DNA from: Escherichia coli
GTDB taxonomy: Bacteria; Pseudomonadota; Gammaproteobacteria; Enterobacterales; Enterobacteriaceae
Reading direction: 5' to 3' (one strand)
Assembly (NCBI GenBank): GCA_902500205.1
Contig: GCA_902500205.1_4868.1
Length of the DNA stretch: 64,000 nt
In this document: one piece after another, positions 13,916 to 33,041 of the stretch
Position numbering within the stretch: the first letter of the stretch is position 1
How the letters are laid out: every line of letters starts with the position of its first letter
Notes under the pieces: model-generated
The model's database searches: none
The model's input: the letters and a program-made list of their open reading frames with translations, nothing else
Told to the model about the DNA's origin: nothing
Translations under genes and position numbers: made by a program

Positions 13916-13925
13916 GAGGGTATAG

Positions 13926-14768: not shown

Positions 14769-14778
14769 GGATTTTGAC

Positions 14779-15624
14779 ATGCCACTTTTAGCCACAGCTG
14801 TAAAGATTATTATCGCGGAGGTTAACGTCGAAAACAATCTCGATTTAAAAGTCGAGGATGTTGTTTTTGGTGTCCCTGCGATTCCAACGTCTGACGAAGA
14901 CTTGGCAAAAGCTAACGGTCACAACGCGATGGTGCGCATTCAGGCATTGGCCACGGCTAATGCTATCGGTGCCACTACCGTCTATTACGATCGTGTTGAC
15001 TTCGCAGACATGTTTACCGATCCGGACGGGATTCAACCTTTACGTGTTCCTGCGCGTCTCGATGCTGTTTACCAGATGCATGACGTGGTCGGGTTAATTA
15101 ACCAGTATTACGGTCTCAGCCTTAAACCTGCAGATGTGGTGAATACCGAAATCGACAGGAAGACATGGCGTGTGGATCTGATTGCCACGCCCACTTCCTT
15201 AGGTTGGATAGGGCAACAACAGGTACAGCTGTTACCAGGCGATGCGTTGCTTCCTGCAAACTTCGAACCGTTAACAGTGATGCCTTACGAGTATCCGTAT
15301 TTCAACATCAAGGTCGGTCAAGGTGCAGTTTATTCGTATCCCTGGCGCTTTGATAATTTCGCGGAGGAATTTCAACGACTAGGTGCTGCGATAACCACAG
15401 AACGTCTGGCACAGATTCTCAAAACGGTCACCGGTGATAACTGGACAACATACCGTAACCCTATCGACTTTAACCTTCGTGAAGCCGTCGTCGTCTATAA
15501 CGGGCGTAACAAAGCGGAATTACCAACCAACCCAGCAGTCGACAACGTGCTGATTGTGGAGCTGTCGTTGTACTGTCTGAATTTTGGCGGGCGTTTGTAT
15601 TTGCATTACAACGACCCTGATTAA
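14779..15624 (+). CDS. family-A paralog 3 (281 aa)
   Basis: RBS AAGGA; conserved ..YYDRVDFADMF.. segment and C-terminal ..LYLHYND. Confidence 0.65.
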   Translation: MPLLATAVKIIIAEVNVENNLDLKVEDVVFGVPAIPTSDEDLAKANGHNAMVRIQALATANAIGATTVYYDRVDFADMFTDPDGIQPLRVPARLDAVYQMHDVVGLINQYYGLSLKPADVVNTEIDRKTWRVDLIATPTSLGWIGQQQVQLLPGDALLPANFEPLTVMPYEYPYFNIKVGQGAVYSYPWRFDNFAEEFQRLGAAITTERLAQILKTVTGDNWTTYRNPIDFNLREAVVVYNGRNKAELPTNPAVDNVLIVELSLYCLNFGGRLYLHYNDPD

Positions 15625-15645
15625 TCCTGAGTAAAGGAAGTAAGA

Positions 15646-16557
15646 ATGAAACCTTTAAACAAAACGTCCGATAAGCTGGTTCTGGATTTTATTAATGAGA
15701 AAAACCCAGACGCAGAACTGGAACTTTCTAAAATAACGCTCGGCACACCGACCCCTATTAGCGATGAAGGTGCTGATCGCAATACCAGCATGACCCTGAC
15801 TGCGAAAAAGAACTCCGGGTACATCGGTACTCAGGACGTGACTTATAATCGCCTGGAAGGCGGTGCGCTGTTCCGTAATGTAACAGCATACCTCGACGTT
15901 AAACTGCCGAAAACCACCACAGACCTGCTGACGACCCTGAACACCCAATACGGATTGAAGCTGACCGAAGACGATATCGTTCCGGCGGCTATTCCGGAAA
16001 ATACCAACCCGCCGCTGACTAACCCGAACGATCCGGACCCAGCACCGGTTGACCATGTCATTACCTTCAAAGAAGACTGCTACGCTTATCTGGGCAGCAT
16101 CCCGGTTAAAATCGGTGCTAAGCCTCAGGTTGGTGAACGTCTGAGTCTGGTGGTAACACAAACCAAGCTCGACGGCCTGGTTTACCCAGATGGTCCAAGC
16201 GAAGCGAAGGGTCAGGGCTACATCTACTCTTACGGTGTAGACTGCACAGCAATCGCAGCATTCCTGAAAGTACAGGCGAAAGGTGTTATCGCTGGCGACT
16301 CTGCATTCCCGGTTGAGCTGAATAAAGTTGTGCCGGAACTGTGGGTTGCATCTGATGAGCCTGCGGATTATAACCTGAAAGGCGCTAACGTGTTGTATGT
16401 TGGTTCTACTGCTGACGATGGCACTGCTTCAGGCGACGAACCTAAGAAACCGGTTGAAGGTGCAAACACTGCTTACAACCAGGTTCTGCTGCTGCAGCTG
16501 GATGACACTCTGTGCACCAACTTCCAGGGCATCATGTACCTGCACTTTAATGCCTAA
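15646..16557 (+). CDS. family-A paralog 4 (303 aa)
   Basis: RBS AAGGAAG; N-terminus ..KLVLDFINEKNPDA...ADRNTSMTL... and C-terminal CTNFQGIMYLHFNA almost identical to paralog 1 ending. Confidence 0.7.
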   Translation: MKPLNKTSDKLVLDFINEKNPDAELELSKITLGTPTPISDEGADRNTSMTLTAKKNSGYIGTQDVTYNRLEGGALFRNVTAYLDVKLPKTTTDLLTTLNTQYGLKLTEDDIVPAAIPENTNPPLTNPNDPDPAPVDHVITFKEDCYAYLGSIPVKIGAKPQVGERLSLVVTQTKLDGLVYPDGPSEAKGQGYIYSYGVDCTAIAAFLKVQAKGVIAGDSAFPVELNKVVPELWVASDEPADYNLKGANVLYVGSTADDGTASGDEPKKPVEGANTAYNQVLLLQLDDTLCTNFQGIMYLHFNA

Positions 16558-16568
16558 TTAGGCCTCGC

Positions 16569-16610
16569 TGGGAGGAGGAAATCCTCCTCCTGGCTACTCC
16601 TTTCTTTTTT
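16569..16610 (+). terminator. intrinsic terminator
   Basis: GGGAGGAGGA-AAT-CCTCCTCC hairpin followed by a T-run. Confidence 0.6.
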
Positions 16611-16626
16611 GGCCGAGGAGGCTATT

Positions 16627-17466
16627 ATGGCTTTATATAGTCTGTCTCAGCGACAATATCTGTACGATGCGATTAATGCCGAAAACCCGGATGCTGTTCT
16701 ACCGATGGGTTTAGACAATGCTATCATCGGTACGCCGAAAGCAATCACACCGACAGCAAGCGGTGCCAACACCGAGATTATCATTCGTGGTCGTCAAGGT
16801 CGTGGCTATATCGGTCCTCAGACGTTCCGTTATAAGCGCTTGTCGCTGAACGACTTATTTAAGAACATGACACCTCAGGTAACTGCACCGAATGCCTACG
16901 GTTGGTTGAACGTGGAGTCGAAACGTACTGCGTTTGCGCAGAACCTGAACGGTCGTTATGGATTAAACCTGGTTGCAGACGATATCCCAGAACAATACGT
17001 TTATCTGAACGTAAACAACACGATGCGTATTAACGCTAGCTGTATCCAATACACTGGCAGCATCACCTTTATGTCTATCCGGGGTAAGAATAGCCTCGAA
17101 GACCTCGTGGTAAACGACATCTTGTTGGCTTTGAACCACCCTGCAGCAGCAAGCACTGGTAAGAAATACATGGGCTTCTTGACGTACGGGGAAGACTTTA
17201 CCGATGAAGTGCAGGTTATGGCCTCGTTTAAGAACGGGCGAATGGATGTAGGAAGTAACTTTGATTTGGGTTACACGTCCAATCTGATGGCCACATTGGT
17301 CGCACGTGGGGTACCGTCGTTTGATCCGACGAACTGCACAATTACCCGCTACAAAACGAGTGAGTTGGCGACCGCCAATAAAGCGTACGATAACGTATTG
17401 CTGATTACCGGCATTCAGAACGACCCGAAAGTAATCGGCGAGTGTATGTTGCACTACAACAACTAG
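16627..17466 (+). CDS. family-A paralog 5 (279 aa)
   Basis: ATG 16627 after GAGGAGG; C-terminal ..MLHYNN. Confidence 0.65.
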   Translation: MALYSLSQRQYLYDAINAENPDAVLPMGLDNAIIGTPKAITPTASGANTEIIIRGRQGRGYIGPQTFRYKRLSLNDLFKNMTPQVTAPNAYGWLNVESKRTAFAQNLNGRYGLNLVADDIPEQYVYLNVNNTMRINASCIQYTGSITFMSIRGKNSLEDLVVNDILLALNHPAAASTGKKYMGFLTYGEDFTDEVQVMASFKNGRMDVGSNFDLGYTSNLMATLVARGVPSFDPTNCTITRYKTSELATANKAYDNVLLITGIQNDPKVIGECMLHYNN

Positions 17467-17476
17467 GAATTAGCGA

Positions 17477-18364
17477 ATGGCTATTTATCAACCTTCTAAA
17501 GACGTCCTGTTGGCAGCAGTGAACGCACAGAACTCGCTTGCTGTTAAGATGACTGACATCATCTGGTCCACGCCAAAGGACATCCGTGGTACGGAGAAGG
17601 AAACGCTGACTAACCGTAACACGCAAATTAAAATTACGGCAGATGGGGTAACGGGCTCTACCTGGTCGGGTAAGAAAAATGTCTTCTACAACCGCATGAA
17701 AGTCGAAGACTTGTTAGTGCTGATCGGTGACACGTTGGCGATCGGCCCATCCAACGAAACCTTGTATGCGGCCATTCCTGGACTGAACCAACGTTACGGT
17801 TTTGTTCTGGAAGAAGCTGACCTGCAGGACGCAGATATCGAGTGGAACGGTGATAAGACCGAAGGAACTGTGCGCGTTGTTGCACATCCAGAGTCTATCG
17901 GTTGGGTTGGACAGGCGACATTTAAAGTCGTGAAAGGTGATGAGTCGTTAGTCTCTGCAGTCACCACTAACGTCCTGACCGGTCTGAAATACCCGAACGG
18001 TCAGATGGGTTCCGAAACCGTTACTGCGGTCATTGCAGAGGTTTATTCCTACCCGTACAACTTCACTAAGTACCGAGATGCTCTGCTGGCATACAAGCCG
18101 GGTATTCTGTCTGGACAGCCGTTAACGGATATGGTTAACCTGCTGAAAGATATTACGGGTACTGCATGGGTAGCGACCACTTCCGCTTCCTACGGTTTGG
18201 CGGGCGCGGAGGTTATCAGCGTTGGTCTGAATGACCCTGTTGCAATGCCGACAAACGCGAAGTACAAGTATGCGCTGGTGTTGAAACTGCCTGTTACCTG
18301 TACCACCATCGTCGGAACGTTGTATCTCCAGTTCAACGATCTGGACGATCCAAGCGAGGTATAA
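17477..18364 (+). CDS. family-A paralog 6 (295 aa)
   Basis: N-terminus MAIYQPSKDVLLAAVNAQN...NRNTQIKIT...; C-terminal ..LYLQFNDLDD. Confidence 0.65.
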   Translation: MAIYQPSKDVLLAAVNAQNSLAVKMTDIIWSTPKDIRGTEKETLTNRNTQIKITADGVTGSTWSGKKNVFYNRMKVEDLLVLIGDTLAIGPSNETLYAAIPGLNQRYGFVLEEADLQDADIEWNGDKTEGTVRVVAHPESIGWVGQATFKVVKGDESLVSAVTTNVLTGLKYPNGQMGSETVTAVIAEVYSYPYNFTKYRDALLAYKPGILSGQPLTDMVNLLKDITGTAWVATTSASYGLAGAEVISVGLNDPVAMPTNAKYKYALVLKLPVTCTTIVGTLYLQFNDLDDPSEV

Positions 18365-18367
18365 TTG

Positions 18368-19195
18368 ATGATCAACTATGCTAAGCCGTCAAACGAGTTG
18401 GTCTTTGACCTCATTAACCGGGATAACCCAAACCTACCTATTAAAGCGTCGCCGGCAAACTGCTACGTGGAGAAAGTGACACAGGTTCCCGTTAATGCAG
18501 CTTCCAACAACCGCAATACGTCGGCACGCTTGCGCGGTATTCAGGGTTCCGGATTTCGAGACGCAATCACCGTTTATTACGACCGTGTGAACTTAGCGCG
18601 GTTATTGCCGTGGGGTCCTTCTGTCCAGGCGCAGTTCGTCACGTTTGACGCTCCCAACCTCCACTCAGCCTTTTCGGTGCTCTTGGATACTTACGGAGTA
18701 AACTTCTCTGCAATCGATATCTATAACCTCCCACTGGCGGGCCCCAATACCCCAAATTACACCAATACACAGAACATCGTAGCGCTATCGACATCTCCGG
18801 CTTATATCGGTTCTGCGACGTTGCGTTATAACCGTGGTTTACCGGTACTAGACACTTCGGTGAAATCGGATGTCTTGAATGCGATTCAAGAGCCTATCTC
18901 GCCGTCTCTCGGTAAGAAGTGTATTGATTTGTTGACGTACGGTATTGACTTTACCGCGTATAAAAACCTACTGACAGTAGATGCTTCTGGCCTACCGCAG
19001 TGGGCTGGTTTGCGTAAGGTGTTGGATGACCTGGGTATTCCGAACTACGCGGGGCCACTGAACAGTAACACCGTTCAGGATGTGCCGACTTCCACCGCTC
19101 AGTTCGCTAACAAATCGTACGACCGCGTGGTTATCCAAACGGGCATCGATGAGGAAGGCGTGAAAGGCGTGGCGTACTACCACTATAACAGCTAA
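18368..19195 (+). CDS. family-A paralog 7 (275 aa)
   Basis: MINYAKPSNELVFDLINRDNPNL...NNRNTSARL...VYYDRVNLARLL; C-terminal ..YYHYNS. Confidence 0.65.
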   Translation: MINYAKPSNELVFDLINRDNPNLPIKASPANCYVEKVTQVPVNAASNNRNTSARLRGIQGSGFRDAITVYYDRVNLARLLPWGPSVQAQFVTFDAPNLHSAFSVLLDTYGVNFSAIDIYNLPLAGPNTPNYTNTQNIVALSTSPAYIGSATLRYNRGLPVLDTSVKSDVLNAIQEPISPSLGKKCIDLLTYGIDFTAYKNLLTVDASGLPQWAGLRKVLDDLGIPNYAGPLNSNTVQDVPTSTAQFANKSYDRVVIQTGIDEEGVKGVAYYHYNS

Positions 19196-19200
19196 GTGTA

Positions 19201-19226
19201 GGGGCTCTTCGGAGCCCCCTCTTTTG
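19201..19226 (+). terminator. intrinsic terminator (UUCG tetraloop, short T-run)
   Basis: GGGGCTC-TTCG-GAGCCCC followed by CTCTTTTGG. Confidence 0.5.
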
Positions 19227-19242
19227 GCGATGCGGAGTCCCT

Positions 19243-20655
19243 ATGCTATTTTACTCGAAGGAGTCGGCACTGCTTGTATACGACCAAGTCAATCGGGATA
19301 ACCCTGATTTAGTTGTTAAGCTGACGCCGGCTATCGCTGCTTTAACCGGCGGCCCAACTTCAGTTACGTTAAACCAACGTAACACCAAAGCTGTTTTCAC
19401 CGGGTATCCAGGGACAGGTGTACAAGGTAATGTTACCGTGTACTACGACCGGATTAACCTGGCCACTTTATTTAATTTTGTGCCGACTGTGGCTATCAAA
19501 GATACAGTCTTAACGGTACGAGACGCGCTACCTGCAATAAACGACGCATTGGGGCTTACATTAGTTGCTTCTGATTTGCAGTCACCTGACGCAAGTTTAC
19601 CTAAACCGAGCGCTTCGCCGCAGACGTTGAAATTAAATATCTCAGGTAATTGCCCTGCGTTTACAGGCAGCTTAACGATACGTTATACCGTCCCGAGCGG
19701 TGCAATTTACCCCGATTCTGGACCTGGCCCTAAAACGTTGCTGCAAGGTAACACTATCGCGGGTTATTTCGGAACAACCACAATTGCAGAGTTGTTTACA
19801 CACTCTCAACTTCTTAATGCCACTATATCGGCCGGTGCGTTACCACCGGTACATTCTGGTGCCGAAGGTTGGTACAAGTTCTTTTACCAGGGTAGGGTTA
19901 TTTACCTCCCGATCAGTCCTGTCGCTAGCTCCATCTCCTGGAATACGTTATATACAAACGGACTCGTTTACGGAACAGATGATAATGGTAAATACCCTGC
20001 GGCGACGCCCGTTAACCAGGGACGCATCATTAGCTTTACAGGCGCAGACAACAAAAGGTTTTACTTCCGCGTTCGTCTACCTAGTGCTGGGAAGGACCCA
20101 TACGTCAGCGGCACCCCAACTGCCGCTGAGTTAGCAGGTAGTGAGTTTGAGATGTTCAACTTTCTGTATAATGGAACGTGGGACAAACCGATTAACAGTT
20201 ACTGGACGCTGTTCTGTTTATTGAAAGATACACTGAAGACCAACGTCGCCTATCATCGCATGGCGACGTTGTCTGGAGCCAGTTGGACAAACTTAGGAAA
20301 ATCATCGAGCGCAGGCAACTACTACTGGTTCCCGGTGCTGGAGTTGGTGGATAAATCCACAGTTACCTTGGGTTTAGAAGATATCCATGGTGCGGTAGAT
20401 TACAGTCTCCAACCGTGCAGCGTGTCCGCAGAAAACACGTTTAGTCTCAAGCCGTTGGTGCTCGGTAATCCAGATACTACCGATTTCGAACCGGTAGTTG
20501 TTACTTCAGAAAACAGTTTCGCACTGCATCCGCCTGCTTTAATGCTGCCGAAGACAGTCGATTTCCAACCTATTGCGGCTACCGCTGAAATGTATACGCC
20601 CCCTGACAAGACAACGTTAACGTCTCTTAACGGTGAACTGGACGGCTTTAAGTAG
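19243..20655 (+). CDS. family-A N-terminal domain protein with extended C-terminal region, ends NGELDGFK (470 aa); cassette copy 1, gene a
   Basis: N-terminus MLFYSKESALLVYDQVNRDNPDL...NQRNTKAVF...VYYDRINLATLF; contains SGPGPKTLLQGN..GYFG; C-terminal SLNGELDGFK. Confidence 0.7.
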   Translation: MLFYSKESALLVYDQVNRDNPDLVVKLTPAIAALTGGPTSVTLNQRNTKAVFTGYPGTGVQGNVTVYYDRINLATLFNFVPTVAIKDTVLTVRDALPAINDALGLTLVASDLQSPDASLPKPSASPQTLKLNISGNCPAFTGSLTIRYTVPSGAIYPDSGPGPKTLLQGNTIAGYFGTTTIAELFTHSQLLNATISAGALPPVHSGAEGWYKFFYQGRVIYLPISPVASSISWNTLYTNGLVYGTDDNGKYPAATPVNQGRIISFTGADNKRFYFRVRLPSAGKDPYVSGTPTAAELAGSEFEMFNFLYNGTWDKPINSYWTLFCLLKDTLKTNVAYHRMATLSGASWTNLGKSSSAGNYYWFPVLELVDKSTVTLGLEDIHGAVDYSLQPCSVSAENTFSLKPLVLGNPDTTDFEPVVVTSENSFALHPPALMLPKTVDFQPIAATAEMYTPPDKTTLTSLNGELDGFK

Positions 20656-20666
20656 AGGTATCATCT

Positions 20667-21665
20667 ATGTCTTTTACTTTGCGTTGGAAAAATCCAAACG
20701 TAATCCCTACGGTAGTAAAAATCTACCGTGACGTTAAAGATATCACACCAAGCGCTTTGCCTGAACCGATTGCAACGCTCTCAAATGGCGAGACAGAATG
20801 GCGTGATGCCACCGCCAAACCAGGCGCAATCTATTATTACCTTCTAACGGTAACCGCCAACGGTAAAACAGTGGCATCGTCTAGCCAGAAATACACCATT
20901 GAGATAAAGCGTGGGATTGGCCCAATGACTATTCTAAACGGTAACGACCGTTTAGGGTTTATGGGTGCGGTTCCTTACGACGAACAATGGCTTCCGTCGC
21001 AAATGCCACCTGCATTTTTGGCGATGTTCCCTAATCTATTAACCGATCGTGTGGCGTTGTATAAATTTACCCGAAACGGGAAAATCTATTACATGCTATC
21101 TAATACGTCGCAGTTCCCGAATACGCCTGTGGACTGGGCTTCCCTCTATCAAGCCGGTTTAGTCTATGGTACAGGCGATGCTGGCCCAGAGAACGGCCAT
21201 GGAACGCTACCAGACACTCCACAAGACGCTAAGATAGTCCACAAAGGGGATACGTACATTATGCGGCTTCCTCGCGGCCTGACGATGTCTAGCGAGCCTC
21301 CTGCGTATCCTTTCGTAGCTGACTATAATGGGAAAACCCATGATGAAATCGCTTCTCTAACCAACCCGTGTGAGTATAACGATTTACTTTACACGATGGT
21401 TAACGAGGTGCCGTGGAAACAGCGTTGGGCTAACTGGGCAACGAACAGTTATACTTTTCTGGGGCAGGGTACTTTGGGAACCTTGGCAGCGTATTTCGGC
21501 GGTGGTGTTCTCTGTATGGAACACGACACCGCGGAAGACCGTGTGCTCCATCGTGGTATCTTTAACAATGCCGGTGGAACACCCGTATCAGCGATTCAGC
21601 GTATAAACTATTTATCACCCACCACGAAAGGGCGTTACTACCCTATCTTTGAACTGGTCGAGTAA
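20667..21665 (+). CDS. cassette copy 1, gene b (332 aa), structural-type protein
   Basis: Paralogous to 24121-25107 (shared IYRD..ITPSALPEP.ATL.NGETEW.D, GL.YG..GPGPE.GHG.LPD). Confidence 0.65.
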   Translation: MSFTLRWKNPNVIPTVVKIYRDVKDITPSALPEPIATLSNGETEWRDATAKPGAIYYYLLTVTANGKTVASSSQKYTIEIKRGIGPMTILNGNDRLGFMGAVPYDEQWLPSQMPPAFLAMFPNLLTDRVALYKFTRNGKIYYMLSNTSQFPNTPVDWASLYQAGLVYGTGDAGPENGHGTLPDTPQDAKIVHKGDTYIMRLPRGLTMSSEPPAYPFVADYNGKTHDEIASLTNPCEYNDLLYTMVNEVPWKQRWANWATNSYTFLGQGTLGTLAAYFGGGVLCMEHDTAEDRVLHRGIFNNAGGTPVSAIQRINYLSPTTKGRYYPIFELVE

Positions 21666-21674
21666 GGGGCAGTC

Positions 21675-22598
21675 ATGACTATACGGTTAAGCTGGCCGTC
21701 CCAAGCCAGCAAAGGTCTTACCGCGATTGAAATCTACCGCAAGGAAGGTTGGAACGCAACAATCGACGTTTACAATCCAGGCACACCCCACGCAACTTTA
21801 TCAGGCAACGCGGTAGAGTTCGTAGATAATATCGATACCCTGACGAAGAATACAACCTATCGTTATTGGGTAGCTGCTGTGAAGGACAGTGAACGACTTA
21901 TCGGCAATCCGATTACGCAAGGATTCTATCCGGACACCGGGCCGGGTCCGCAAACAATCCTGCGCGGTGACTGGGCTTCAGGTTATTTCGGTACAGTACC
22001 GAATACAGAGTTCTTTAATACTGCCGAGTTAAAACTCATGTTAACTGCGCAGCAGGGAAACATGTTTGTCTACGACCCTCAGGAATGGCACAAGTTTATT
22101 TTCCGTGGGAGAATTGTCTTCTTCCCAGCGACGATGCATTCGAAAACCAACTCGGTACAAATGGCGTATCAGTACGGTATGATGTACGGGACCGATGATG
22201 TCGGAAGTATTGTTCCGCAGGGAGCCACGGCGACTAAACAAGATTGTAAGGTCACGAAGGATGGTCGTACGTACCGTATCCGATTACCTTACGCAGTCCC
22301 GTACGACGCTGTTCTCTCAGGACAGGATTACAACAACGGTGAATGGCGAAACACAATGGGCCGTTTGTATCCTGTCGGTGCAGAGTTCGCAGCCCTCGGT
22401 CTTGGTGCGATTGACTCACTTGCAAGACAAGGCGCGACTGCGCAGCCGAATGAGTCAGGTGCCGCTGTATTAGCTCCTTTGTGGAGCAACAACATATTCG
22501 CTTATGCGTATGGCACCGTGCCTATGGGGATTAGTAACACCGCAGGTGTCGGGAACTCGGCCACGATATTCTTTGCTTTCGAATTAGTCTTACCGTAA
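21675..22598 (+). CDS. cassette copy 1, gene c (307 aa), structural-type protein
   Basis: Paralogous to 25110-26009 (IEIYRK.GWNATIDV..PGTP.ATL.G, TTYRYW.AAVKD.ER, TGPGPQ..L.GDW..GYFGTV, C-terminal ELVLP). Confidence 0.65.
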   Translation: MTIRLSWPSQASKGLTAIEIYRKEGWNATIDVYNPGTPHATLSGNAVEFVDNIDTLTKNTTYRYWVAAVKDSERLIGNPITQGFYPDTGPGPQTILRGDWASGYFGTVPNTEFFNTAELKLMLTAQQGNMFVYDPQEWHKFIFRGRIVFFPATMHSKTNSVQMAYQYGMMYGTDDVGSIVPQGATATKQDCKVTKDGRTYRIRLPYAVPYDAVLSGQDYNNGEWRNTMGRLYPVGAEFAALGLGAIDSLARQGATAQPNESGAAVLAPLWSNNIFAYAYGTVPMGISNTAGVGNSATIFFAFELVLP

Positions 22599-22611
22599 CG
22601 GAGTAAAAGCC

Positions 22612-24108
22612 ATGGGGTTGTATACAGAACCTTCAATGGAACTGCTCTGCCAACAAATTGTGCGTGACAATCCCGGTTTAGCAGGAAAAATCACCGCTGA
22701 CTCCGTTGGGGTCAGGGGTGTTCCTGTTGCGAGAAACGTTAACGGACGAAACACACAGATTACGTTGGTAGGAAAACCTGGTAAAGGATTTGCTGGGGAA
22801 ATAACGGTATATTACGACCGGTTGAATCTGGCCAGTCTGTTCAAGTCTGGCCCGAATATGGTGAGTATTCCACGTAGCGCACAAACCCATGCGGAAGCGT
22901 TACCGGCGTTCAATGAATTGAACGGGTTGAACTTAACCGCGAGTGACATCACCAGTCCAAACGTTGCATTAATGAAATACGCTACGCCGGAAACTATAAC
23001 TCTGACGGCGCACGCTAACTCCTTGTGCTATACCGGGTCATGCAAGATGACCTATGTTTACGAACCGATTGCGATGTATCCGAAGTCGGGCCCTGGGCCA
23101 AAAGGATTAATGGCCGGTAATGAGTTATACGGATTCTTTGGGCTGGTAAGCGCGGAAGAGTTATTCACATCTGATGAAATGGTGTATGCCCTCTATAACG
23201 GCACCAACTGGCCTAACCGCTACGCTATCAAGTGGCTCAAATTCTTTCTGAATGGGGCGGTAGTGTTTGTTCCGACCCGTGCGATTTGCAACGTTACCTG
23301 GGCAGACCTGTACAACAAGGGTGCAATATTTGATTCCGGAGACGCAGGACCTCGCCCGAAGTCGACTTACACACCTGTCGATGTTGAACAGTTGAAATAC
23401 ATGGTAAAACGGGATGATGAAGGAACGCATTATTTCAGAATGTCTATCCCGTATTACACCGAGAACGCCGCCGCGCCTGATTGGAGTAAACCGCCGTCAA
23501 TCACCTCTATCCTGTCACTGACCAGCAAATTGGGGTCGGTGAACGTATATGGGGAATGGGGAACTCTTAGCACGACTGATGCTAACTTCCTGGATTCCGT
23601 GTGGTTACGACACCAGTTCGGTGCCGACCAAGCGTATTACCAGTCTATCAGTGGGAGCTATCGTTCATACACCTACATCTACACCTCTTCTGGCTTTTGG
23701 CCAATCCTGGAGATGTTTGATGTTGCCAATGAACCTGTGCCGTTGATTGACGAAGGTGCAGAACTAACATGGGCACCGTCCGTGGTTACTCTGACGGACA
23801 TCGACCAAAATGAATCGCTTCGTGTGGTGCCTATTACGGAAACCTCCGCTGCAGCGAATCCACGTCCGTTAGTTTTCAACACCGACAACACCGAAACTGC
23901 CACCCCTGCCTGGGTGCGGGAAGCGTCATCAGACTCACCACGTCCTCTGCTTGCCACGACGGACAATGATGAACGTGCATATTCCGTCGCGGTAACAGGC
24001 ATGGCTAGCGTTAAGATTAGACCGATTATTCTCACGACTGACCAAATCGCCCAACCTTCAAAAATTACTCTGGGCGATACTAACGGTGAGTTGGATGGAT
24101 TCCAATAA
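22612..24108 (+). CDS. family-A N-terminal domain protein with extended C-terminal region, ends NGELDGFQ (498 aa); cassette copy 2, gene a
   Basis: N-terminus MGLYTEPSMELLCQQIVRDNPGL...NGRNTQITL...VYYDRLNLASLF; contains SGPGPKGLMAGNELYGFFG; C-terminal TNGELDGFQ. Confidence 0.7.
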   Translation: MGLYTEPSMELLCQQIVRDNPGLAGKITADSVGVRGVPVARNVNGRNTQITLVGKPGKGFAGEITVYYDRLNLASLFKSGPNMVSIPRSAQTHAEALPAFNELNGLNLTASDITSPNVALMKYATPETITLTAHANSLCYTGSCKMTYVYEPIAMYPKSGPGPKGLMAGNELYGFFGLVSAEELFTSDEMVYALYNGTNWPNRYAIKWLKFFLNGAVVFVPTRAICNVTWADLYNKGAIFDSGDAGPRPKSTYTPVDVEQLKYMVKRDDEGTHYFRMSIPYYTENAAAPDWSKPPSITSILSLTSKLGSVNVYGEWGTLSTTDANFLDSVWLRHQFGADQAYYQSISGSYRSYTYIYTSSGFWPILEMFDVANEPVPLIDEGAELTWAPSVVTLTDIDQNESLRVVPITETSAAANPRPLVFNTDNTETATPAWVREASSDSPRPLLATTDNDERAYSVAVTGMASVKIRPIILTTDQIAQPSKITLGDTNGELDGFQ

Positions 24109-24120
24109 GAGGTAACGACA

Positions 24121-25107
24121 ATGGCTTTTACAATTCGTTGGACGAACAATAACCCTGGGGCTTCGACCGTGAAGCTGTACCGCGACACCAAACCTCTGGT
24201 GCGTACGGCATTACCTGAACCTCTGGCAACGTTCACTAACGGGGAAACTGAGTATACTGACCGAACAGCGATACTGGGGACAACGTATTACTACATGACC
24301 ACTGTGACAGTGGGAAGCCGAACACTGTTCAGTCCGCAGAAATCAATTCTGATTCAGAACCGTCGCGGTATCGGCATCGTGACTCCACAGTACGGTGATG
24401 ACCGCTTTGCGTATTACGGGTATGTGGCGTACGGTGAATTGCCTAGCGCGGCTGATTATCCGCCAGGGTTTGTGGCCATTTCTGGATATGACCCAACTGT
24501 TAAGCCGGGCTTGATTAAGTTCCAGCTAGACGGTAAAATTCTGTATCTGTTTAGTGGTCTTCGTGTGAACGGCAACACGCTGTATAGCCGTGATGCGATT
24601 TATAACGCGGGTTTGCTGTACGGTGTGGAGGGACCTGGTCCGGAAGGCGGTCATGGTGATTTACCTGACGTTGACCAGGCTGGGGAGTTTACGTGGTTGG
24701 GTGACCGCTATCGGATGCGCCTGCTGCGCGGGTTAACGCTCGACAGTGAAAGCCCGGTCATGACACTCGACGCACAGTGGAACGGTAAACTCCATGACGC
24801 GTCACCGTATACTGCCGATAGCGAATACAACCGACTCATCTATGGGATAAGTAGCTGGTTCCCAGAAAAGAAAAAAGTGATGTCCCTGATAAAGTGGTCG
24901 AACACCAGCATATTCGGAAGTGGATCGCTGGTGGCAGGCCGTGGGGCGCATTGTCAGGAGTTTGACCCAGACAGTAAGTTGGGGCTGACGCGCGGATGGG
25001 CGGCGGCGGATTCCACTGATACCGTGGATAACCTCCAGCGTATACAACATGTCCCTGCGACCGTGGGCGGTATTTGGATTCCAGTAATCGAGCTTATCGA
25101 GGATTAA
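24121..25107 (+). CDS. cassette copy 2, gene b (328 aa)
   Basis: Paralog of 20667-21665. Confidence 0.65.
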   Translation: MAFTIRWTNNNPGASTVKLYRDTKPLVRTALPEPLATFTNGETEYTDRTAILGTTYYYMTTVTVGSRTLFSPQKSILIQNRRGIGIVTPQYGDDRFAYYGYVAYGELPSAADYPPGFVAISGYDPTVKPGLIKFQLDGKILYLFSGLRVNGNTLYSRDAIYNAGLLYGVEGPGPEGGHGDLPDVDQAGEFTWLGDRYRMRLLRGLTLDSESPVMTLDAQWNGKLHDASPYTADSEYNRLIYGISSWFPEKKKVMSLIKWSNTSIFGSGSLVAGRGAHCQEFDPDSKLGLTRGWAAADSTDTVDNLQRIQHVPATVGGIWIPVIELIED

Positions 25108-25109
25108 TC

Positions 25110-26009
25110 ATGCCTATTACATTAAACTTTGCACAACGGAAGCCACAGGCGCTCGATAACATTGAAATCTATCGCAAGACGCCGGGCAACGCCACCATTG
25201 ATGTTAATGCACCGGGAACGCCTCTGGCAACCCTTCCGGGTGACGCTACATCGTACGAAGACAACGCTGTGGAAAACAACACCACTTACCGTTATTGGAT
25301 AGCTGCGGTTAAAGACGGTGAGCGTGTCTTCAACACCCCTACCGCCCAAGGGTTCTTTTTAGACACCGGGCCTGGCCCCCAGAAACTGTTATACGGCGAC
25401 TGGCACGCCGGATACTTTGGAACAGTAACGCCAGCAGAGTTATTCACTAACGCGGAACTGAACAGCCTCGTGGTGAATATGTTCAGTTCCGCCGTTGGTG
25501 CCTGGCATAAGTTCATTTACAAAAACCGTATTCTGTTTATGTCCGATAACTCGATAATATACGCTAGCCCGCAGTTCATTTATAACCAGGGGCTGATGTA
25601 CGGCCAGGATGGCAACGGATATGTGCCGAGCTGGGCTAGTGCACGTAACCAACGCCGCACGGTGACGAAAAACGGTTACGAATACGTGGTGCGCTTGCCG
25701 TATTTGTTCGACTACAAATACTGGACGTCTTTCGTTGGAAGCGGTAACACCGAGTTGTATCTCGACGGTGAGTGGTTTAACACCTTCGCGCGCCTGTACA
25801 ACTACAGTGGGCAGTTTCCGCGCTTTGACGACATTCCGGTCGGTCCAATCGATTCGGTTACTGCCCAACAATCTGCATTCTTTGCGGCTATGAATAACTT
25901 GTCCGCTCAGTGGTACAACCGTCCACCCTACCCAGAGTCGCCGTCATGGGGTAACTACGGTACCGATACAATACGCTCTATTGCGGTACTTGAACTCGTT
26001 CTGCCTTAA
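25110..26009 (+). CDS. cassette copy 2, gene c (299 aa)
   Basis: ATG 25110 (MPITLNF..) chosen over the upstream in-frame start; paralog of 21675-22598. Confidence 0.6.
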   Translation: MPITLNFAQRKPQALDNIEIYRKTPGNATIDVNAPGTPLATLPGDATSYEDNAVENNTTYRYWIAAVKDGERVFNTPTAQGFFLDTGPGPQKLLYGDWHAGYFGTVTPAELFTNAELNSLVVNMFSSAVGAWHKFIYKNRILFMSDNSIIYASPQFIYNQGLMYGQDGNGYVPSWASARNQRRTVTKNGYEYVVRLPYLFDYKYWTSFVGSGNTELYLDGEWFNTFARLYNYSGQFPRFDDIPVGPIDSVTAQQSAFFAAMNNLSAQWYNRPPYPESPSWGNYGTDTIRSIAVLELVLP

Positions 26010-26029
26010 CAGGAGACTTCATGGGATTG

Positions 26030-26065
26030 TATAGCGCACTTTACCATAACAGCTAAAAATAGGCC
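26030..26065 (+). pseudogene. 11-codon remnant resembling a collapsed family-A gene (MGLYSALYHNS)
   Basis: AGGAG RBS plus ATGGGATTGTAT.. similar to the start of gene 22612 (ATGGGGTTGTATAC..); ending ..LYHNS resembles family C-termini (..YHYNS, ..LHYNN). Confidence 0.3.
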
Positions 26066-26088
26066 CTTCGGGGCCTATTTTCTTTTTT
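26056..26088 (+). terminator. intrinsic terminator (UUCG tetraloop)
   Basis: AATAGGCCC-TTCG-GGGCCTATT followed by TTCTTTTTT. Confidence 0.75.
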
Positions 26089-26099
26089 AGGACGTTGCA

Positions 26100-27419
26100 A
26101 TGATCAACTATAACAAACCTGTCATGCAACTGGTTTGGGATCAGATTAATCGTGATAACCCGCAGCTCAAGAAACCGCTCAACGCAACCAACGTGGCGTT
26201 ATTACAAGGTCCTTTAACCAATGCCTTGCGCGATGGTCGCAACAGCCGTATCGTGGTAAACGGATTACAGGGTGGTGGTTACAGCGGTAAGATGGACATC
26301 TACTACGACCGCTTAAACCTTTCGCAGTATTTTAAAGGCGTCAGCGTACCGGTTAAAGTACCTTATCGGGCGACGGTCTACCGCGACATCATCGATCGGA
26401 TTTCCGCAGCTTGTGGGTTGGTGCTTACTGCTGACGATTTAACGTATCCTGACAGCCAGTTTGCAATGATCACTGTGGCAACGGGCGATCGGACGGTGGC
26501 GATTAAATCGGATAACCCCGCATTCACGGGTTATATTCCTATTAGCTTTATTCGTGAAGAGCCCAGCTTTGCCGACTTGTACCACACCACCGAAACCGGA
26601 GCTTGGGAACCCATGGATGTTTACAGCACGGTCTATCGACTCGACTGGAGCATGTACACTCAACAGATAATCAATATCCCAATGGGTACCCCGCTGCGAC
26701 TAAACAGTAACTCGTACATGACCCAGTTCATCGCGGCGCTGTCGGCATGGTCGGGCATCCCGTTCACTATCGGTAATGCTGCTACTGATAACCCGTATGA
26801 CCTCTATGGGTATGTCGCTACACGCAATAACAACCCAGGCTTAGACCCTGATATGCGTGGGGAGTACAAATACTGCGTGAAGTTGACGCCACCTGAGGAT
26901 ATGGGTAATCTCCGCCGTCCGTTCTTCTTGCACTTTGGTCCGAAAAATAACGTGGCCTATTTGGCGCAGGAAGAGGACGTCGAGCGTTATGCGCGTTACA
27001 TGAGTTTCCGGGAAACCAGCCCAAATTCGATGAGCGTCACGTTGTATCAAAACGAGTACGTGTTGACTCGGGCAGAATCGCCTGAAACAGCGGATGATTT
27101 AACGGGTTCCCCGTATGGCACTCGATACTGTACCGGGAGTATTCGACGGCTGATGCAACACGCGTTTCCGACCGAAGAGATGTTCCAAGAAAGTATTGCT
27201 AACCGACGTCGGGTACTGTACCACACTGCTTACACCACCACGACATCAGCTATTACTTACCAGGGATTATACCGTAACGGATACCAATCCAAACAAATGA
27301 CGAGCCTCTACTCGAATTACTGTAACTATTTCATCTATTACGACCCAAGCAAAGGCGGCTATATGGTCTACAGTCCATATAGCAAAACCGCCCCGGTCCC
27401 TTGGTATCCACCGCTATAG
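26100..27419 (+). CDS. family-A N-terminal domain protein, 439 aa, C-terminal SKTAPVPW motif
   Basis: N-terminus MINYNKPVMQLVWDQINRDNPQL...DGRNSRIVV...IYYDRLNLSQYF; C-terminus YSPYSKTAPVPWYPPL related to next gene. Confidence 0.65.
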   Translation: MINYNKPVMQLVWDQINRDNPQLKKPLNATNVALLQGPLTNALRDGRNSRIVVNGLQGGGYSGKMDIYYDRLNLSQYFKGVSVPVKVPYRATVYRDIIDRISAACGLVLTADDLTYPDSQFAMITVATGDRTVAIKSDNPAFTGYIPISFIREEPSFADLYHTTETGAWEPMDVYSTVYRLDWSMYTQQIINIPMGTPLRLNSNSYMTQFIAALSAWSGIPFTIGNAATDNPYDLYGYVATRNNNPGLDPDMRGEYKYCVKLTPPEDMGNLRRPFFLHFGPKNNVAYLAQEEDVERYARYMSFRETSPNSMSVTLYQNEYVLTRAESPETADDLTGSPYGTRYCTGSIRRLMQHAFPTEEMFQESIANRRRVLYHTAYTTTTSAITYQGLYRNGYQSKQMTSLYSNYCNYFIYYDPSKGGYMVYSPYSKTAPVPWYPPL

Positions 27420-27433
27420 ACTAAGGTGCCACC

Positions 27434-29611
27434 ATGTCCTACACTCCTGATTTAGTGGCGACCGTGATTCGGTCGCTCAACCGTAAAAACGCGGTCGCCA
27501 GAGCAGTAGACCCCGCTAACGTACGCCTGGTGTCCGTGGCGCATCGTGACGAAAAAACCCTAGACGTCACACTGACAGGGGGTCCGGGGTATTCTAGTTA
27601 CGGTCAAATTACGGCCCAGGTCACGAAGCAAAATATTGCTGATTATTTCGCTAAGGTTAAGTTGGATGCCATTCCCACTTGTGCGTCCATCCACGAACTG
27701 TTGCCACATTTAGACACTCTACTAGGGATTACCTTTTTAACCGACGACTTTGAAGACCTGCCCATCACTTGGACAAACAATGCTGCGCGCATCACGTTCC
27801 AGGCGAAACAGACAAGTCTTATCTGGTACGGCAGCCAAACGCTAGATGTGATAAACGGTGACGTGGATATCAACACTGTCTACACTGTTACCAATATCAT
27901 TTTCACGCTAAAGGCTGCGAATAAACAGCAGTGGATTAACTTCTACTCTAATGCAGCCAAACGGATCGTGGATCTTGATAAAGTCGATGTCAGCGCCCCG
28001 ATGTCCCCGGAGGATATAGGCCAAACCTCTGCGTATAACAGCGTCGTAGCTTTGACCGCTAGACCGGGGAGCGGGATGTTTGGAACGAAGTATGTGTTCT
28101 TCTCACGTAACAAACTCGAGACATATGCAGGCAAAACCACATACGTCCCGGACGATTTCACCGGTAGCCTGCATGATGCTCTGGCCATCGAGACACTCGG
28201 CATTCGGAGTGTTTTTGATGTAAACGAAATTGCTCCTGTAGAGAACCTGACAGGCGAGTGGCCGAGACAAGTGCAATTGGCACCCGTAGAGGGTTCGTAC
28301 AAAGTCATGGGCAGCGCCACGTTGAATGTGGCACGCTATCAAGATAACGAGCAAACCCTTAACCTGAACTACACAACTACGTCGCAACTTTCGGACAGCT
28401 ACTGGGCCACAACGTTGATCAACCATGCGGCCTGCGGGCGTTTGTTTGTTAACGTGACCGTAGATGCGGGGGCTTTCGTTTATCGCGACAGCAACCTGAA
28501 ACCGACGTTCGTTATCGACGAATTGCCGCAAATTGGCGAGGTGGTTTGGAACTTCGTTAACCGGGGAACCATTCTTGGTCGTGGTGGTTCGGGTGTGGTC
28601 TACTCTATGCCTGCGAACACATCAGCGGACGGAGCTGACGCAATCCACATTAGCGATACCTTCCGTGGCAAAGTCACCATCGAAAACTACGGCACCATCG
28701 CCGGTGGTGGGGGTGGGGGCGACTACTATGCGTTTAGCACCACCAAGATCGGTGGAGCTGGTGGTGCGCCTCTCGGGCCAGGCGCGGCGGTGCCCAGCGA
28801 CACCAATAACCGTAACGGCTTAGCTGGGTCCCGTGACAAAGGCGGTGCTACCCAGTTAGTCGTCGCGCAATTTACCGGCTACCAGAGTCGCTACTATGGC
28901 GGTCCGGGTGGGGATTGGGGCCAGCCGGGACGTTATACAGCGTTCGAGCAATGGAACACCCCGGCTACCGGCTCGCCGGTCTATGTCTACGGTCGTGAAG
29001 ACGGGATGTCATGGACTCGCCCTGGGATGGCAGGCGAAGCCGTCGGTGGGAATAAAAGTATCGTCAACTGGGTATCCGTCGGAACGGTGAAACCGAATGT
29101 CACCGACGAGTACCAAGAGTTCCTCGACTACCTCGCAGATTTAGATGCCAACCGACTGGCTAGTGCGGATGGGATAGATAAAGTCACCGACCCAACCAAA
29201 CCTGTAGTTGTGGAGTTCTTAGGTACGATTATTTCAGGTACGCTGTTCAAAAAGCAAAACATACCCGGCGGTTTGGTGGGAACACCATACGGCGATGCTG
29301 TAGCCAACTTACCAGCCACCACATTGTTTGGTATCATGGCACACTGTGTATCGGAGTTTGATATTGTGCACGACACTTGGCGTTACAACCGCGCGGTAAT
29401 GTTCACGCTAAAACCCGCACCTACCGGGGCGATTAGCCTCGCTGTGGAACGCAACCGGGTGAAATCGGCTACCAGTAGTGCACCGGTGGAGAAGTTCTAC
29501 GTCGATCGCTTCGTGTATTACGATGCGTATCTCGGTAAAATGATGGAATGTAATCCGTATACCAAATCTGCCCCTAAACCGTGGGTGCGGCCAACGATAC
29601 CGTTATCGTAA
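27434..29611 (+). CDS. family-A-related large protein, 725 aa, Gly-rich internal segment, C-terminal TKSAPKPW motif
   Basis: Weaker N-terminal family resemblance; internal GGGGGGDYYAFSTTKIGGAGGAPLGPGAAVP; C-terminus NPYTKSAPKPWVRP parallels the preceding gene. Confidence 0.65.
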   Translation: MSYTPDLVATVIRSLNRKNAVARAVDPANVRLVSVAHRDEKTLDVTLTGGPGYSSYGQITAQVTKQNIADYFAKVKLDAIPTCASIHELLPHLDTLLGITFLTDDFEDLPITWTNNAARITFQAKQTSLIWYGSQTLDVINGDVDINTVYTVTNIIFTLKAANKQQWINFYSNAAKRIVDLDKVDVSAPMSPEDIGQTSAYNSVVALTARPGSGMFGTKYVFFSRNKLETYAGKTTYVPDDFTGSLHDALAIETLGIRSVFDVNEIAPVENLTGEWPRQVQLAPVEGSYKVMGSATLNVARYQDNEQTLNLNYTTTSQLSDSYWATTLINHAACGRLFVNVTVDAGAFVYRDSNLKPTFVIDELPQIGEVVWNFVNRGTILGRGGSGVVYSMPANTSADGADAIHISDTFRGKVTIENYGTIAGGGGGGDYYAFSTTKIGGAGGAPLGPGAAVPSDTNNRNGLAGSRDKGGATQLVVAQFTGYQSRYYGGPGGDWGQPGRYTAFEQWNTPATGSPVYVYGREDGMSWTRPGMAGEAVGGNKSIVNWVSVGTVKPNVTDEYQEFLDYLADLDANRLASADGIDKVTDPTKPVVVEFLGTIISGTLFKKQNIPGGLVGTPYGDAVANLPATTLFGIMAHCVSEFDIVHDTWRYNRAVMFTLKPAPTGAISLAVERNRVKSATSSAPVEKFYVDRFVYYDAYLGKMMECNPYTKSAPKPWVRPTIPLS

Positions 29612-29654
29612 TTTAACGAGGAACTTGACGGGTTTAAAGCCTGAAGATAAACCA

Positions 29655-29690
29655 TGCCCTCTTCCCCACGGGGAAGAGGCTTTCTTTTTA
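29655..29690 (+). terminator. intrinsic terminator
   Basis: CCTCTTCCCC..GGGGAAGAGG hairpin followed by CTTTCTTTTT. Confidence 0.7.
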
Positions 29691-29716
29691 TGACCCTATC
29701 AACTCAGGAGGTTATC

Positions 29717-30307
29717 GTGGTCGATCGTTGGAGTAAAGAGGGCATTATTCGTGCCAAAGTAAACATCGAAGCCGGTTACGTTAATAACCCGAAAGATTTG
29801 GGTAAAGCAACGAACCGTGGTGTCACCGAACTCACGGCGCGTGAATATGGCTATAAAGGGGATATGCGTGACCTGAGCTTAGAAATCGCGTTAGACATTT
29901 ACAACAAGCTCTGGTGGCAGCGAATGCGTTTAGACCAGATTATGAAAATGAATGTCCTGCTAGCTGACCGGATGTTTGACTTCGGCATTAACGCAGGACG
30001 CGGTAACTGTATCAAGTCCCTGCAACGTATTCTGAACGTATTAAACCGTCAGGGTAAACTATACGATGATATCGATGCCGATGGTGGTATCGGGCCACGT
30101 ACGTTAACAGCGTTAGAAGGCTTCATCAAAGCCCGTGGGGAAGAGGGCCTGAATCGACTGATGTTCGCTTTAACCTGTCATCAGGTTGCGTATTACACGG
30201 AAATCAGTGAAGGGCGTGAGGATAACGAAGAGTTTACTTACGGCTGGTATGGCCGCGTCTATCAGGAAATGCCAGACTACGTGGCTAAGTTGGGGATGTG
30301 CAAATGA
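29717..30307 (+). CDS. putative endolysin, glycoside hydrolase family 108-like N-terminus
   Basis: GTG 29717 five nt after AGGAGG; N-terminal EAGYVNNPKDLGKATNRGVTE resembles the GH108 signature (EGGYVNDP.D.GG.T..GIT) as I recall it; position at head of a lysis-type cassette. Confidence 0.55.
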   Translation: MVDRWSKEGIIRAKVNIEAGYVNNPKDLGKATNRGVTELTAREYGYKGDMRDLSLEIALDIYNKLWWQRMRLDQIMKMNVLLADRMFDFGINAGRGNCIKSLQRILNVLNRQGKLYDDIDADGGIGPRTLTALEGFIKARGEEGLNRLMFALTCHQVAYYTEISEGREDNEEFTYGWYGRVYQEMPDYVAKLGMCK

Positions 30308-30379
30308 AACAGAATTGGTTTGCTGCCTTAATGAAAGCTATCTGGCGCGCCCTTGTTTTTGCCGCAAGGAGAAAACGTA

Positions 30380-30532
30380 ATGACCCACCGTCCAACTCCG
30401 CCTAAGTTCCCCGAAGTACAAACCGTTCCGGAAACGTATTACGATTCTGGGTTCTTCAAACTATTACGCGCGATCTTCTGTCGGAGGGTAAAACCATGCA
30501 ATACGACAACGACGACTGGCCGAAAGGCTTAA
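30380..30532 (+). CDS. possible small lysis-associated protein (50 aa)
   Basis: ATG 7 nt after AAGGAGAAAAC; Pro-rich N-terminus, poly-Thr tail. Below ORF-track size cutoff. Confidence 0.25.
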   Translation: MTHRPTPPKFPEVQTVPETYYDSGFFKLLRAIFCRRVKPCNTTTTTGRKA

Positions 30533-32492: not shown

Positions 32493-33041
32493 ATGGCAGT
32501 TATCTCTGCAAAAGACCAACTCGTCGCGCTGTTTAATGCTGCAAACAGCGGGCTGTCCAGTCCGTTAACTTCTGCTGACGTTACATTCGGCGCTGTTGCT
32601 GACTATTCACCAGCTGATTCTGGAGACACTCGCAACTCCAAACTTACCATCACCGCCACTGCGGAATCCGCTAACTTTACTGGCGAGAAAGAGCTGCATT
32701 ATACCCGTCTCAATTCATTGAACATCATCGGTGCGAAAGCAGTGACCGCTGACCAGGCAGAATGGGATACCGATGATGAAGTGCTTGCTTTTGTCAACGC
32801 AGATCTAATTGCCGCCGGTAAAACGGAAGATGCGTTTGCATTGTCTGAACTCACCATTACACGCGAGGACGGCAGCAGTGGTGAGAAAATCATCACTGTT
32901 AAGGTGAAAGAAGGCCACATTAAATACCAACCTGCCAGCCTTGCTGTTTATACAGTAACGCAGCCAATCGTTAAAACCGACCTGAGCACCACCAATGGTG
33001 AACTGGACGGATTCGACGGCAAAGGTCACGCTGTCATGTAA
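32493..33041 (+). CDS. short family-A-like protein ending TTNGELDGFDGKGHAVM (182 aa)
   Basis: N-terminal pattern (..DQLVALFNAAN...GDTRNSKLTI...HYTRLNSLNII) and C-terminal NGELDGF motif link it to the 13-29 kb array. Confidence 0.6.
   Translation: MAVISAKDQLVALFNAANSGLSSPLTSADVTFGAVADYSPADSGDTRNSKLTITATAESANFTGEKELHYTRLNSLNIIGAKAVTADQAEWDTDDEVLAFVNADLIAAGKTEDAFALSELTITREDGSSGEKIITVKVKEGHIKYQPASLAVYTVTQPIVKTDLSTTNGELDGFDGKGHAVM

Follow-up and report, generated by a model that had tools for sequence, protein, structure and literature searches.

The question raised by this locus is whether an open reading frame of only 11 codons, set in an array of phage virion genes, is a gene, a leader that acts on the terminator behind it, or the residue of larger genes that once stood at the site. 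The window, which is the whole stretch of 64,000 nucleotides that was analysed, is on sequence grounds a Seoulvirus (an SPN3US-like jumbo phage) whose nearest E. coli phage is EC001, and the region of the mini-ORF is 98.1% identical to Escherichia phage vB_EcoM_EC001. At a probability of about 80%, the mini-ORF is a recombination scar rather than a gene, explained by a repeat-flanked deletion.

Several of the surrounding genes belong to DUF7941 (PF25613), a family of virion proteins of chimalliviruses that includes Goslar gp22 and gp23 and PhiKZ gp126 and gp127 (10.64898/2026.04.21.720040). An N-terminal globular domain of ~150 residues is common to all DUF7941 members and has been modelled in the PhiKZ baseplate, and the Goslar preprint proposes that the proteins form head-to-tail filaments from the peripheral baseplate, with host-recognition domains (10.64898/2026.04.21.720040).

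The fibre-gene array and the position of the mini-ORF

Consecutive paralogous virion genes occupy positions 13118-29611 of the + strand. The array includes seven full-length DUF7941 genes (265-303 aa), of which the last, at 18368-19195, is followed by a terminator (T1), the cassettes A1-B1-C1 (19243-22598) and A2-B2-C2 (22612-26009), the mini-ORF, a second terminator (T2), and homologues of SPN3US gp112 and gp111 (the latter at 27434-29611). The A genes, gp112, and gp111 carry only the N-terminal ~150 residues of DUF7941, and the gp111 homologue additionally bears a GP38 adhesin domain. The B and C genes are assigned to phrog_1062, and the A genes contain a central domain that is also found in the B and C genes. 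The features on which the argument depends are as follows.

18368-19195, + strand: g18368, full-length DUF7941 gene (Pfam profile 1-276, E = 6e-87) ending in ..GVKGVAYYHYNS*; intact paralogue of the relic tail
19201-19218, + strand: predicted terminator T1 between g18368 and A1, at the left array junction (terminator scan)
22612-24108, + strand: A2, the paralogue with which the mini-ORF was first compared (DUF7941 profile 1-153; phrog_3589)
25110-26009, + strand: C2, final gene of the second A-B-C cassette (ORF list; phrog_1062; 97.5% to SPN3US gp116)
26011-26015, + strand: AGGAG ribosome-binding site (read directly), apparently retained from the lost A3 gene along with its spacer
26021-26056, + strand: mini-ORF MGLYSALYHNS* (11 codons, probable deletion scar), ATGGGATTGTATAGCGCACTTTACCATAACAGCTAA, 36 nt, one occurrence in the window
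26056-26091, + strand: predicted intrinsic terminator T2, AAAATAGGCCC-TTCG-GGGCCTATTTT, then CTTTTTTAGG; stem 26056-26081
26100-27419, + strand: homologue of SPN3US gp112, a DUF7941 N-domain protein whose gene would ancestrally have followed a g18368-type gene (synteny in Phobos, CR5)

A preliminary description of the window had placed the mini-ORF at 26030-26065; the reading frame is real, but its true site lies 9 nt lower. The AGGAG ribosome-binding site that it described is also present, with a 5-nt spacer to the ATG, and the upstream sequence TTAACAGGAGACTTCATG is identical to that preceding SPN3US gp115. The distance from the C2 stop codon to the ATG of the mini-ORF is 11 nt, and the first C gene and the start of gene 22612 are separated by 13 nt. 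At the other end, the TAA of the mini-ORF (26054-26056) overlaps the first base of the T2 stem, and the next gene begins beyond the terminator at 26100. No CDS is annotated at the mini-ORF in either EC001 or Lh1B. In the Lh1B record (OK428535, L010 1325-1343), ambiguous N bases lie inside the mini-ORF (ATGGGATNGNATAGCGNAC), which could reflect a low-quality assembly or mixed reads at this position.

T2 consists of an 11-bp stem, a TTCG loop, and the run CTTTTTT, which is the G+C-rich stem-loop with T run of an intrinsic terminator. Its stem is invariant among Seoulvirus relatives, with a loop of TTCG, TTCA, or TGAA. The terminator and its spacer (window 26057-26099) are almost identical to Phobos L004 12844-12886, though the gp112 proteins are only 47.7% identical. 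At the other end of the array, the g18368-A1 spacer (19196-19242) is nearly identical to the spacer between Machina gp154 and gp155 (L012 10954-11000), and the left array junction is thus old and common across genera.

Cassette A genes match DUF7941 at profile positions 1-153 only and have the C-terminus ..NGELDGF[KQ]*. This ending terminates every A-type protein (A1, A2, SPN3US A3, JN03 A4, and Phobos gp146, gp149, and gp152) and also occurs near the end of a 182-aa protein encoded at 32493-33041; the sites of the motif are 20632-20655, 24085-24108, and 32493-33041 in the window and 10600-10624 in L011. It may be a common C-terminal docking or processing signal of the fibre proteins. Directly after the TAA of the gp111 homologue, TTTAACGAGGAACTTGACGGGTTTAAAGCCTGA (29609-29644) reads FNEELDGFKA* in frame and, since the Phobos and CR5 gp111 homologues end in ..NGELAGFKS* and ..DTLDGFKK*, looks like an ancestral C-terminus severed by a nonsense codon. 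This remnant is decaying: its F is replaced by V in SPN3US and EC001, the reading frame of EC001 additionally stops earlier, and 15 nt are missing from a Seoulvirus metagenome-assembled genome (L016). The longest ORF of the endolysin spans 29654-30307; its start at 29654 overlaps a terminator-like hairpin (29658-29679), and the gene annotated in SPN3US is shorter (618 nt), which makes ~29690 the probable true start.

The breakpoint and its flanking repeats

Both ends of the mini-ORF had been likened to ends of family genes in the preliminary description, and the two likenesses exceed chance expectation in the window, though to different degrees. The head matches the start of gene 22612 at 12 of 14 positions (ATGGGATTGTATAG vs ATGGGGTTGTATAC), and these two heads are the sole sites in the 64-kb window at ≤2 mismatches; a second site was expected 0.34 times, which makes the head test within the window alone weakly significant. 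Alignment of the mini-ORF by MAFFT with the starts of three A-like window genes was uninformative, and the homology became clear only with the relatives. The family C-termini to which the tail had been compared are also real, as the gene at 18368-19195 ends in YYHYNS* and the gene at 16627-17466 in LHYNN*. The last 15 nt of g18368, CACTATAACAGCTAA (..HYNS*), match only the end of the mini-ORF, TACCATAACAGCTAA, at ≤2 mismatches in the window, with a chance expectation of 0.09 and none of 100 shuffles reaching two matches.

Comparison with SPN3US turns these likenesses into demonstrated homology. SPN3US possesses three cassettes (gp121-119, gp118-116, and gp115-113), which are followed by an unannotated 30-codon ORF (MGFYSSTALELLCRLIQRDNPQHAGRISWS), an in-frame RDSVLHHNS, the same terminator, and gp112. 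The start region of SPN3US gp115 contains the spacer and head of the mini-ORF, 34 nt together, without a mismatch. Window positions 20490-26039 are colinear with positions 1-5553 of the SPN3US locus (L001) at 98.4% identity, and this alignment ends 19 nt into gp115; a second stretch, window positions 26031-30400, follows L001 9001-13371 with 97.5% identity. The alignments share 9 nt, which correspond to ATAGCGCAC at L001 5545-5553 and to ATAGCGTAC at L001 9001-9009. With a 9-mer common to both alignments, a single in-frame deletion of 3,456 bp (1,152 codons) relative to SPN3US explains the window. The mini-ORF is accordingly divided into three parts.

26021-26039, + strand: head, the remainder of the lost A3 gene (SPN3US gp115), namely codons 1-6 plus the initial base of codon 7, from colinearity with SPN3US
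26031-26039, + strand: surviving copy of the 9-bp repeat, ATAGCGCAC, the presumed closure point of the deletion, present in both SPN3US alignments
26040-26056, + strand: tail, last 17 nt of an older g18368-type relic including its original stop codon, from sequence homology

A full-length gene at this position in related phages, for which the preliminary description proposed to look, is found, as SPN3US gp115 (480 aa) starts exactly there, after the second C gene, and JN03 likewise carries the full-length gene A4 at the position of the relic. With a repeat-flanked breakpoint and with both ends homologous to family gene ends, the interpretation of the mini-ORF as a deletion scar stands. The proposal that it arose by deletion inside one gene does not, since the event took ~3.46 kb, comprising A3 from codon 7, B3, C3, and the head of a pre-existing relic.

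The ancestor would have been SPN3US-like, with three cassettes followed by a short relic, the terminator, and gp112. In the lineage of the window, EC001, and Lh1B, the deletion would have closed between imperfect 9-bp direct repeats, the first (ATAGCGCAC) at codons 4-7 of A3 and the second (ATAGCGTAC) at 17 nt from the relic's end, presumably by replication slippage or illegitimate recombination at short repeats. Relative to SPN3US, the loss would have comprised A3 beyond its sixth codon, B3, C3, and the relic head. The surviving ribosome-binding site, ATG, and six codons of A3 would then have been fused to the final four codons of the relic with their stop.

Chance resemblance to the family gene ends is next to impossible. 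The 14-nt head match is weak by itself at an expectation of 0.34, but the 34 identical nucleotides of spacer and head, the break of the colinear alignments exactly at the common 9-mer, the significant tail tests, and the intermediate forms in the relatives all count against coincidence. The immediate ancestor is less narrowly defined. The same deletion endpoints would require a loss of 87 bp from a SPLA3-like genome or of ~315 bp from a genome like L016, so that SPN3US-like, SPLA3-like, and L016-like genomes yield the same product and any of them could have been the immediate ancestor. A route in two steps, in which cassette 3 was lost first and an 87-bp deletion followed through a SPLA3-like intermediate, would also serve, although the single 3,456-bp deletion from an SPN3US-like genome suffices and the window, compared across the entire array, shares 98.4% identity with SPN3US against 93.9% with SPLA3. 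In the final cassette and downstream of it, the window is about equally near SPN3US, EC001, and SPLA3 (97-99%) and is farther from L016 (94-98%).

Collapsed forms of the site and origin of the older relic

The site occurs in four sizes when measured from the stop codon of the C gene to the ATG of gp112: 408 nt in L016, 321 nt in SPLA5c, 181 nt in SPN3US, SPLA3, and the metagenome-assembled genome L014, and 93 nt in the window, EC001, and Lh1B. The ORF at the site correspondingly has 127 codons in L016, 91 in SPLA5c, 30 in SPN3US and SPLA3, and 11 in the window, EC001, and Lh1B, and the alignment of all forms reveals nested deletions. L016 (ERZ791601) carries two cassettes and the 127-codon ORF. 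SPLA3 carries two cassettes and a 30-codon ORF, of which the first 84 nt together with the spacer (99 nt) show no difference from the region where SPN3US gp115 starts (100/105 overall). The 91-codon ORF of SPLA5c is annotated as a 'virion structural protein' (WNT48651.1). L014 and L016 are the Seoulvirus genomes kept from the metagenome scan; five further matches (L015 and L017-L020) were unrelated chance matches and were discarded. A pattern scan of IMG/VR returned only SPN3US and Phobos themselves.

The repeat joints at the site are ATAGCGYAC for the window form, TCGAA(T/G)CAGC, GAATCAGC, and CCGTT(T/A)AAC. The joint between the SPLA5c and SPN3US forms lies at the short repeat TCGAATCAGC / TCGAAGCAGC, that of SPLA3 at GAATCAGC, and the head-tail joint of the relic at CCGTTTAAC / CCGTTAAAC. 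As all the resolved joints fall on repeats of 8-10 bp, they would have arisen by slipped-strand or other short-homology recombination. The ongoing gain and loss that had been deduced from the mini-ORF thus holds for loss, with at least four collapsed states of cassette 3 or the relic, and for gain only indirectly. Cassette 3 decayed independently in SPLA3, SPLA5c, JN03, and the EC001 lineage.

Two of these genomes show further rearrangements. In the Salmonella phage JN03 (MT799840, L011 8623-12528), cassette 3 is dead, with a nonsense codon at about codon 81 of A3 and a deletion that fuses A3, at about codon 128, with the final ~30 codons of C3. A complete A4-B4-C4 cassette occupies the slot used elsewhere by the relic, gp112, and gp111, and gp112 and gp111 are absent there. 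In SPLA5c (OR413585, L009 8772-9846 and 10764-11039), a broken B gene with fragments of 591 and 399 nt lies between A2 and a C3-type gene, which suggests a B2/B3 recombinant with a frameshift. Among the database Seoulviruses, the 11-codon form and two cassettes occur together only in EC001 and Lh1B, both isolated on E. coli; SPLA3, an isolate from Salmonella, also has two cassettes and retains the 30-codon relic. Cassette content may be related to the host, a relation that is confounded in that the phages form one lineage.

The longer forms identify the tail of the mini-ORF. The tail of the SPN3US relic, GGAGTTAAAGGGATAGCGTACTTCACCATAACAGCTAA, aligns with the 3′ end of g18368 at 31 of 39 positions with one 1-nt gap and the same stop codon; none of 2000 shuffles scored as well, and this is the best non-self match in the window on both strands. 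In the SPLA5c and L016 relics, homology to g18368 extends over the last ~45-47 codons (100/134 nt), and the last 135 nt of g18368 are 73-75% identical to these longer tails. Against the g18368 homologues of the relatives, the relic tail is 65-73% identical for every candidate donor. An old 1-nt deletion shifts the frame of the relic near its end, and the final codons (..NS*) are again in the original frame, so the ..YHNS* of the mini-ORF resembles ..YHYNS* by descent. The reading of the mini-ORF as a collapsed family-A gene therefore survives in that both of its ends are homologous to family gene ends, but a single family-A origin does not. The tail is not that of an A gene, since ..YHNS* belongs to full-length DUF7941 genes of the g18368 type and A genes end in ..GELDGF[KQ]* and do not have the C-terminal half of DUF7941.

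The arrangement in other genera bears on how an A-type head and a g18368-type tail came together. In Derbicusvirus (Phobos and CR5), the gene order is small DUF7941 genes, a g18368 homologue, a terminator, homologues of gp112 and gp111, and A-B-C cassettes. Phobos gp143 ends in ..AAGVKGRAYYHYNS* and is followed by the terminator, the spacer AATAAGGCCCTTCGGGGCCTTTTTCTTTTTTGAGGACGTTGCA, and gp144, which is the gp112 homologue; the gp143 end, terminator, and spacer each have a nearly identical counterpart in the window, in the relic tail, T2, and its spacer. In Machinavirus (Machina and ChrisDB), the cassettes directly follow the g18368 homologue. Given these two gene orders, Seoulvirus holds both junction types, with intact g18368, T1, and A1 on the left of the array and a decayed g18368 end, T2, and gp112 on the right.

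The relic heads are of A type. That of L016 is A3-like for 70 codons, and the heads in SPN3US and SPLA5c open with ~22 codons that match A4 of JN03, a full-length gene (65/71 nt), before A3-like codons follow. In Pfam searches, the 127-aa product of the L016 relic scored 51.3 bits with two DUF7941 stretches, the best at profile 1-71, and the 91-aa product of SPLA5c scored 29.4 bits at profile 228-272 (the PF25613 gathering score is 27 bits); the 30-aa forms of SPN3US and SPLA3 had no match to DUF7941, and the product of the mini-ORF has 11 residues, below the search minimum of 20. The 70-codon head of L016 compared with SPN3US A3 gave a pN/pS of 0.29, and its pS of 0.28 against a genome background of ~0.06 places the divergence of the two heads long before that of the genomes.

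As judged from these alignments, the relic is probably a joint between genes. It would have begun as a fusion of the first ~70 codons of an A-type gene, broken near the conserved ..VYYD(R) motif, to the last ~47 codons of a g18368-type gene, whose end would have arrived with the gp112-gp111 module; such a gene would once have stood immediately upstream of the terminator and gp112, an order that Derbicusvirus retains. Nested microhomology deletions would later have shortened the relic. An improbable alternative is the collapse, by nested internal deletions alone, of one ancestral gene between the array and the terminator that encoded a full-length DUF7941 protein with an A-like N-terminus and the ending ..YYHYNS*. 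The longest relics do map to DUF7941 profile 1-71 plus 228-272, the nested size series shows progressive internal loss, and the microhomology CCGTT(T/A)AAC at the head-tail joint is typical of internal deletion. However, the heads are of A3/A4 type (65/71 to JN03 A4, and 100/105 to gp115 in SPLA3) and unlike those of full-length DUF7941 genes, A-type genes lack profile positions 154-276, the gene that precedes the terminator and gp112 in Derbicusvirus begins in the manner of g18368 (MLNFSKPSNELVFDLIN..), and the last step in the window deleted a whole cassette and not the interior of one gene. No intact hybrid gene with an A-like head and a g18368-like end was found among the genomes compared.

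Function, turnover, and known systems

By comparison of the related sequences, the mini-ORF is most likely non-functional. Only three genomes carry it (the window, EC001, and Lh1B), and ORF length and stop position differ in genomes that are >95% identical in the flanks. The 11-residue peptide may still be made, as the ribosome-binding site and ATG of A3 are intact, and a small effect on termination is possible because a ribosome halting at the stop codon would rest against the base of the hairpin. A functional leader-type ORF, whose translation tunes read-through into gp112 and gp111 or whose peptide is active, is nevertheless very improbable. The strong AGGAG at 5 nt from the ATG and the stop codon overlapping the first stem base, where part of the stem would lie under a ribosome that ends translation, accord with such a role, and the ancestral Phobos arrangement also has a stop codon directly before the hairpin; the mini-ORF, however, is a recent deletion product restricted to three genomes, and its counterparts are placed differently, as the SPN3US ORF stops 27 nt before the stop codon of the tail, the SPLA5c ORF runs into the hairpin loop, and the L016 ORF continues past the hairpin. 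The predicted fold of 26005-26099 contains no antiterminator, with a z-score of -1.38 and the hairpin as its sole stable element, and no Rfam family matches the site above threshold, the sub-threshold matches being driven by the hairpin. A promoter scan near the mini-ORF found no sigma-70-like site and fewer sites than in shuffles, in phages that use their own RNA polymerases.

A more speculative and rather doubtful proposal concerns the turnover of the array. The partial A-gene head, which most Seoulviruses retain at the right end of the array, may act as a terminal direct repeat that, with the heads of the A genes, enables array expansion, contraction, and module swaps. The SPLA3 joint at an A head and the replacement of gp112 and gp111 by A4-B4-C4 in JN03 point in this direction. 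If so, the repeat in the window, EC001, and Lh1B is down to 19 nt, and their array would be largely frozen at two cassettes.

The scar provides a dated breakpoint in a region that probably determines host range in the SPN3US-like jumbo phages, and several phages of this group are under development against Salmonella and E. coli. At repeats of no more than 8-10 bp, entire three-gene fibre cassettes are lost, the sequenced relatives show at least four distinct modes of decay of cassette 3, and one slot holds alternative modules by phage, either gp112-gp111 with its GP38 adhesin or a fourth cassette. For annotation, the 91-codon 'virion structural protein' of SPLA5c is a relic, and the 11-codon ORF should not count as a gene. 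Erosion at this one site can be followed through four steps. No account of the mini-ORF relic or of variation in cassette number was found in the literature. The mini-ORF is otherwise ordinary, a known kind of gene remnant in a modular host-recognition locus whose history is unusually well documented.

Compared with the DUF7941 family, the scar takes its head from an A-type N-domain gene and its tail from the C-terminus of a full-length member, and the nucleotide homology of its ends establishes descent; unlike the members, it keeps six head codons and about four tail codons, without an intact N-terminal domain, and as none of the defining domain is retained it is not a functional DUF7941 member. 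Nor does it belong with the cassette A genes (phrog_3589), as it ends in YHNS* and not in GEL(D/N/L)GF. Attenuator leader peptides share with it a short ORF, a good ribosome-binding site, and an end at the foot of an intrinsic terminator. In contrast to those leaders, the mini-ORF is not conserved, either as an ORF or in its stop position, has no regulatory codons and no alternative RNA structure in the form of mutually exclusive terminator and antiterminator, and has a recent deletion origin.

Gene remnants left by deletions at short direct repeats are common in phage and bacterial genomes. The present case is similar in that a 9-bp imperfect repeat flanks the breakpoint with one copy kept and the other joints lie on 8-10 bp, and it differs in that a four-size series survives in sequenced relatives and that the product is an in-frame ORF with a real ribosome-binding site and stop codon. 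T-even phages exchange their tail-fibre and adhesin genes in a modular manner, as in the gp37/gp38 mosaics. Similarly, host-recognition modules are swappable in this locus and conserved N-terminal segments serve as crossovers (the SPLA3 joint and A4-B4-C4 of JN03); unlike the T-even mosaics, the modules here are tandem three-gene A-B-C cassettes of a chimallivirus, and the crossover segment is the N-terminus of DUF7941.
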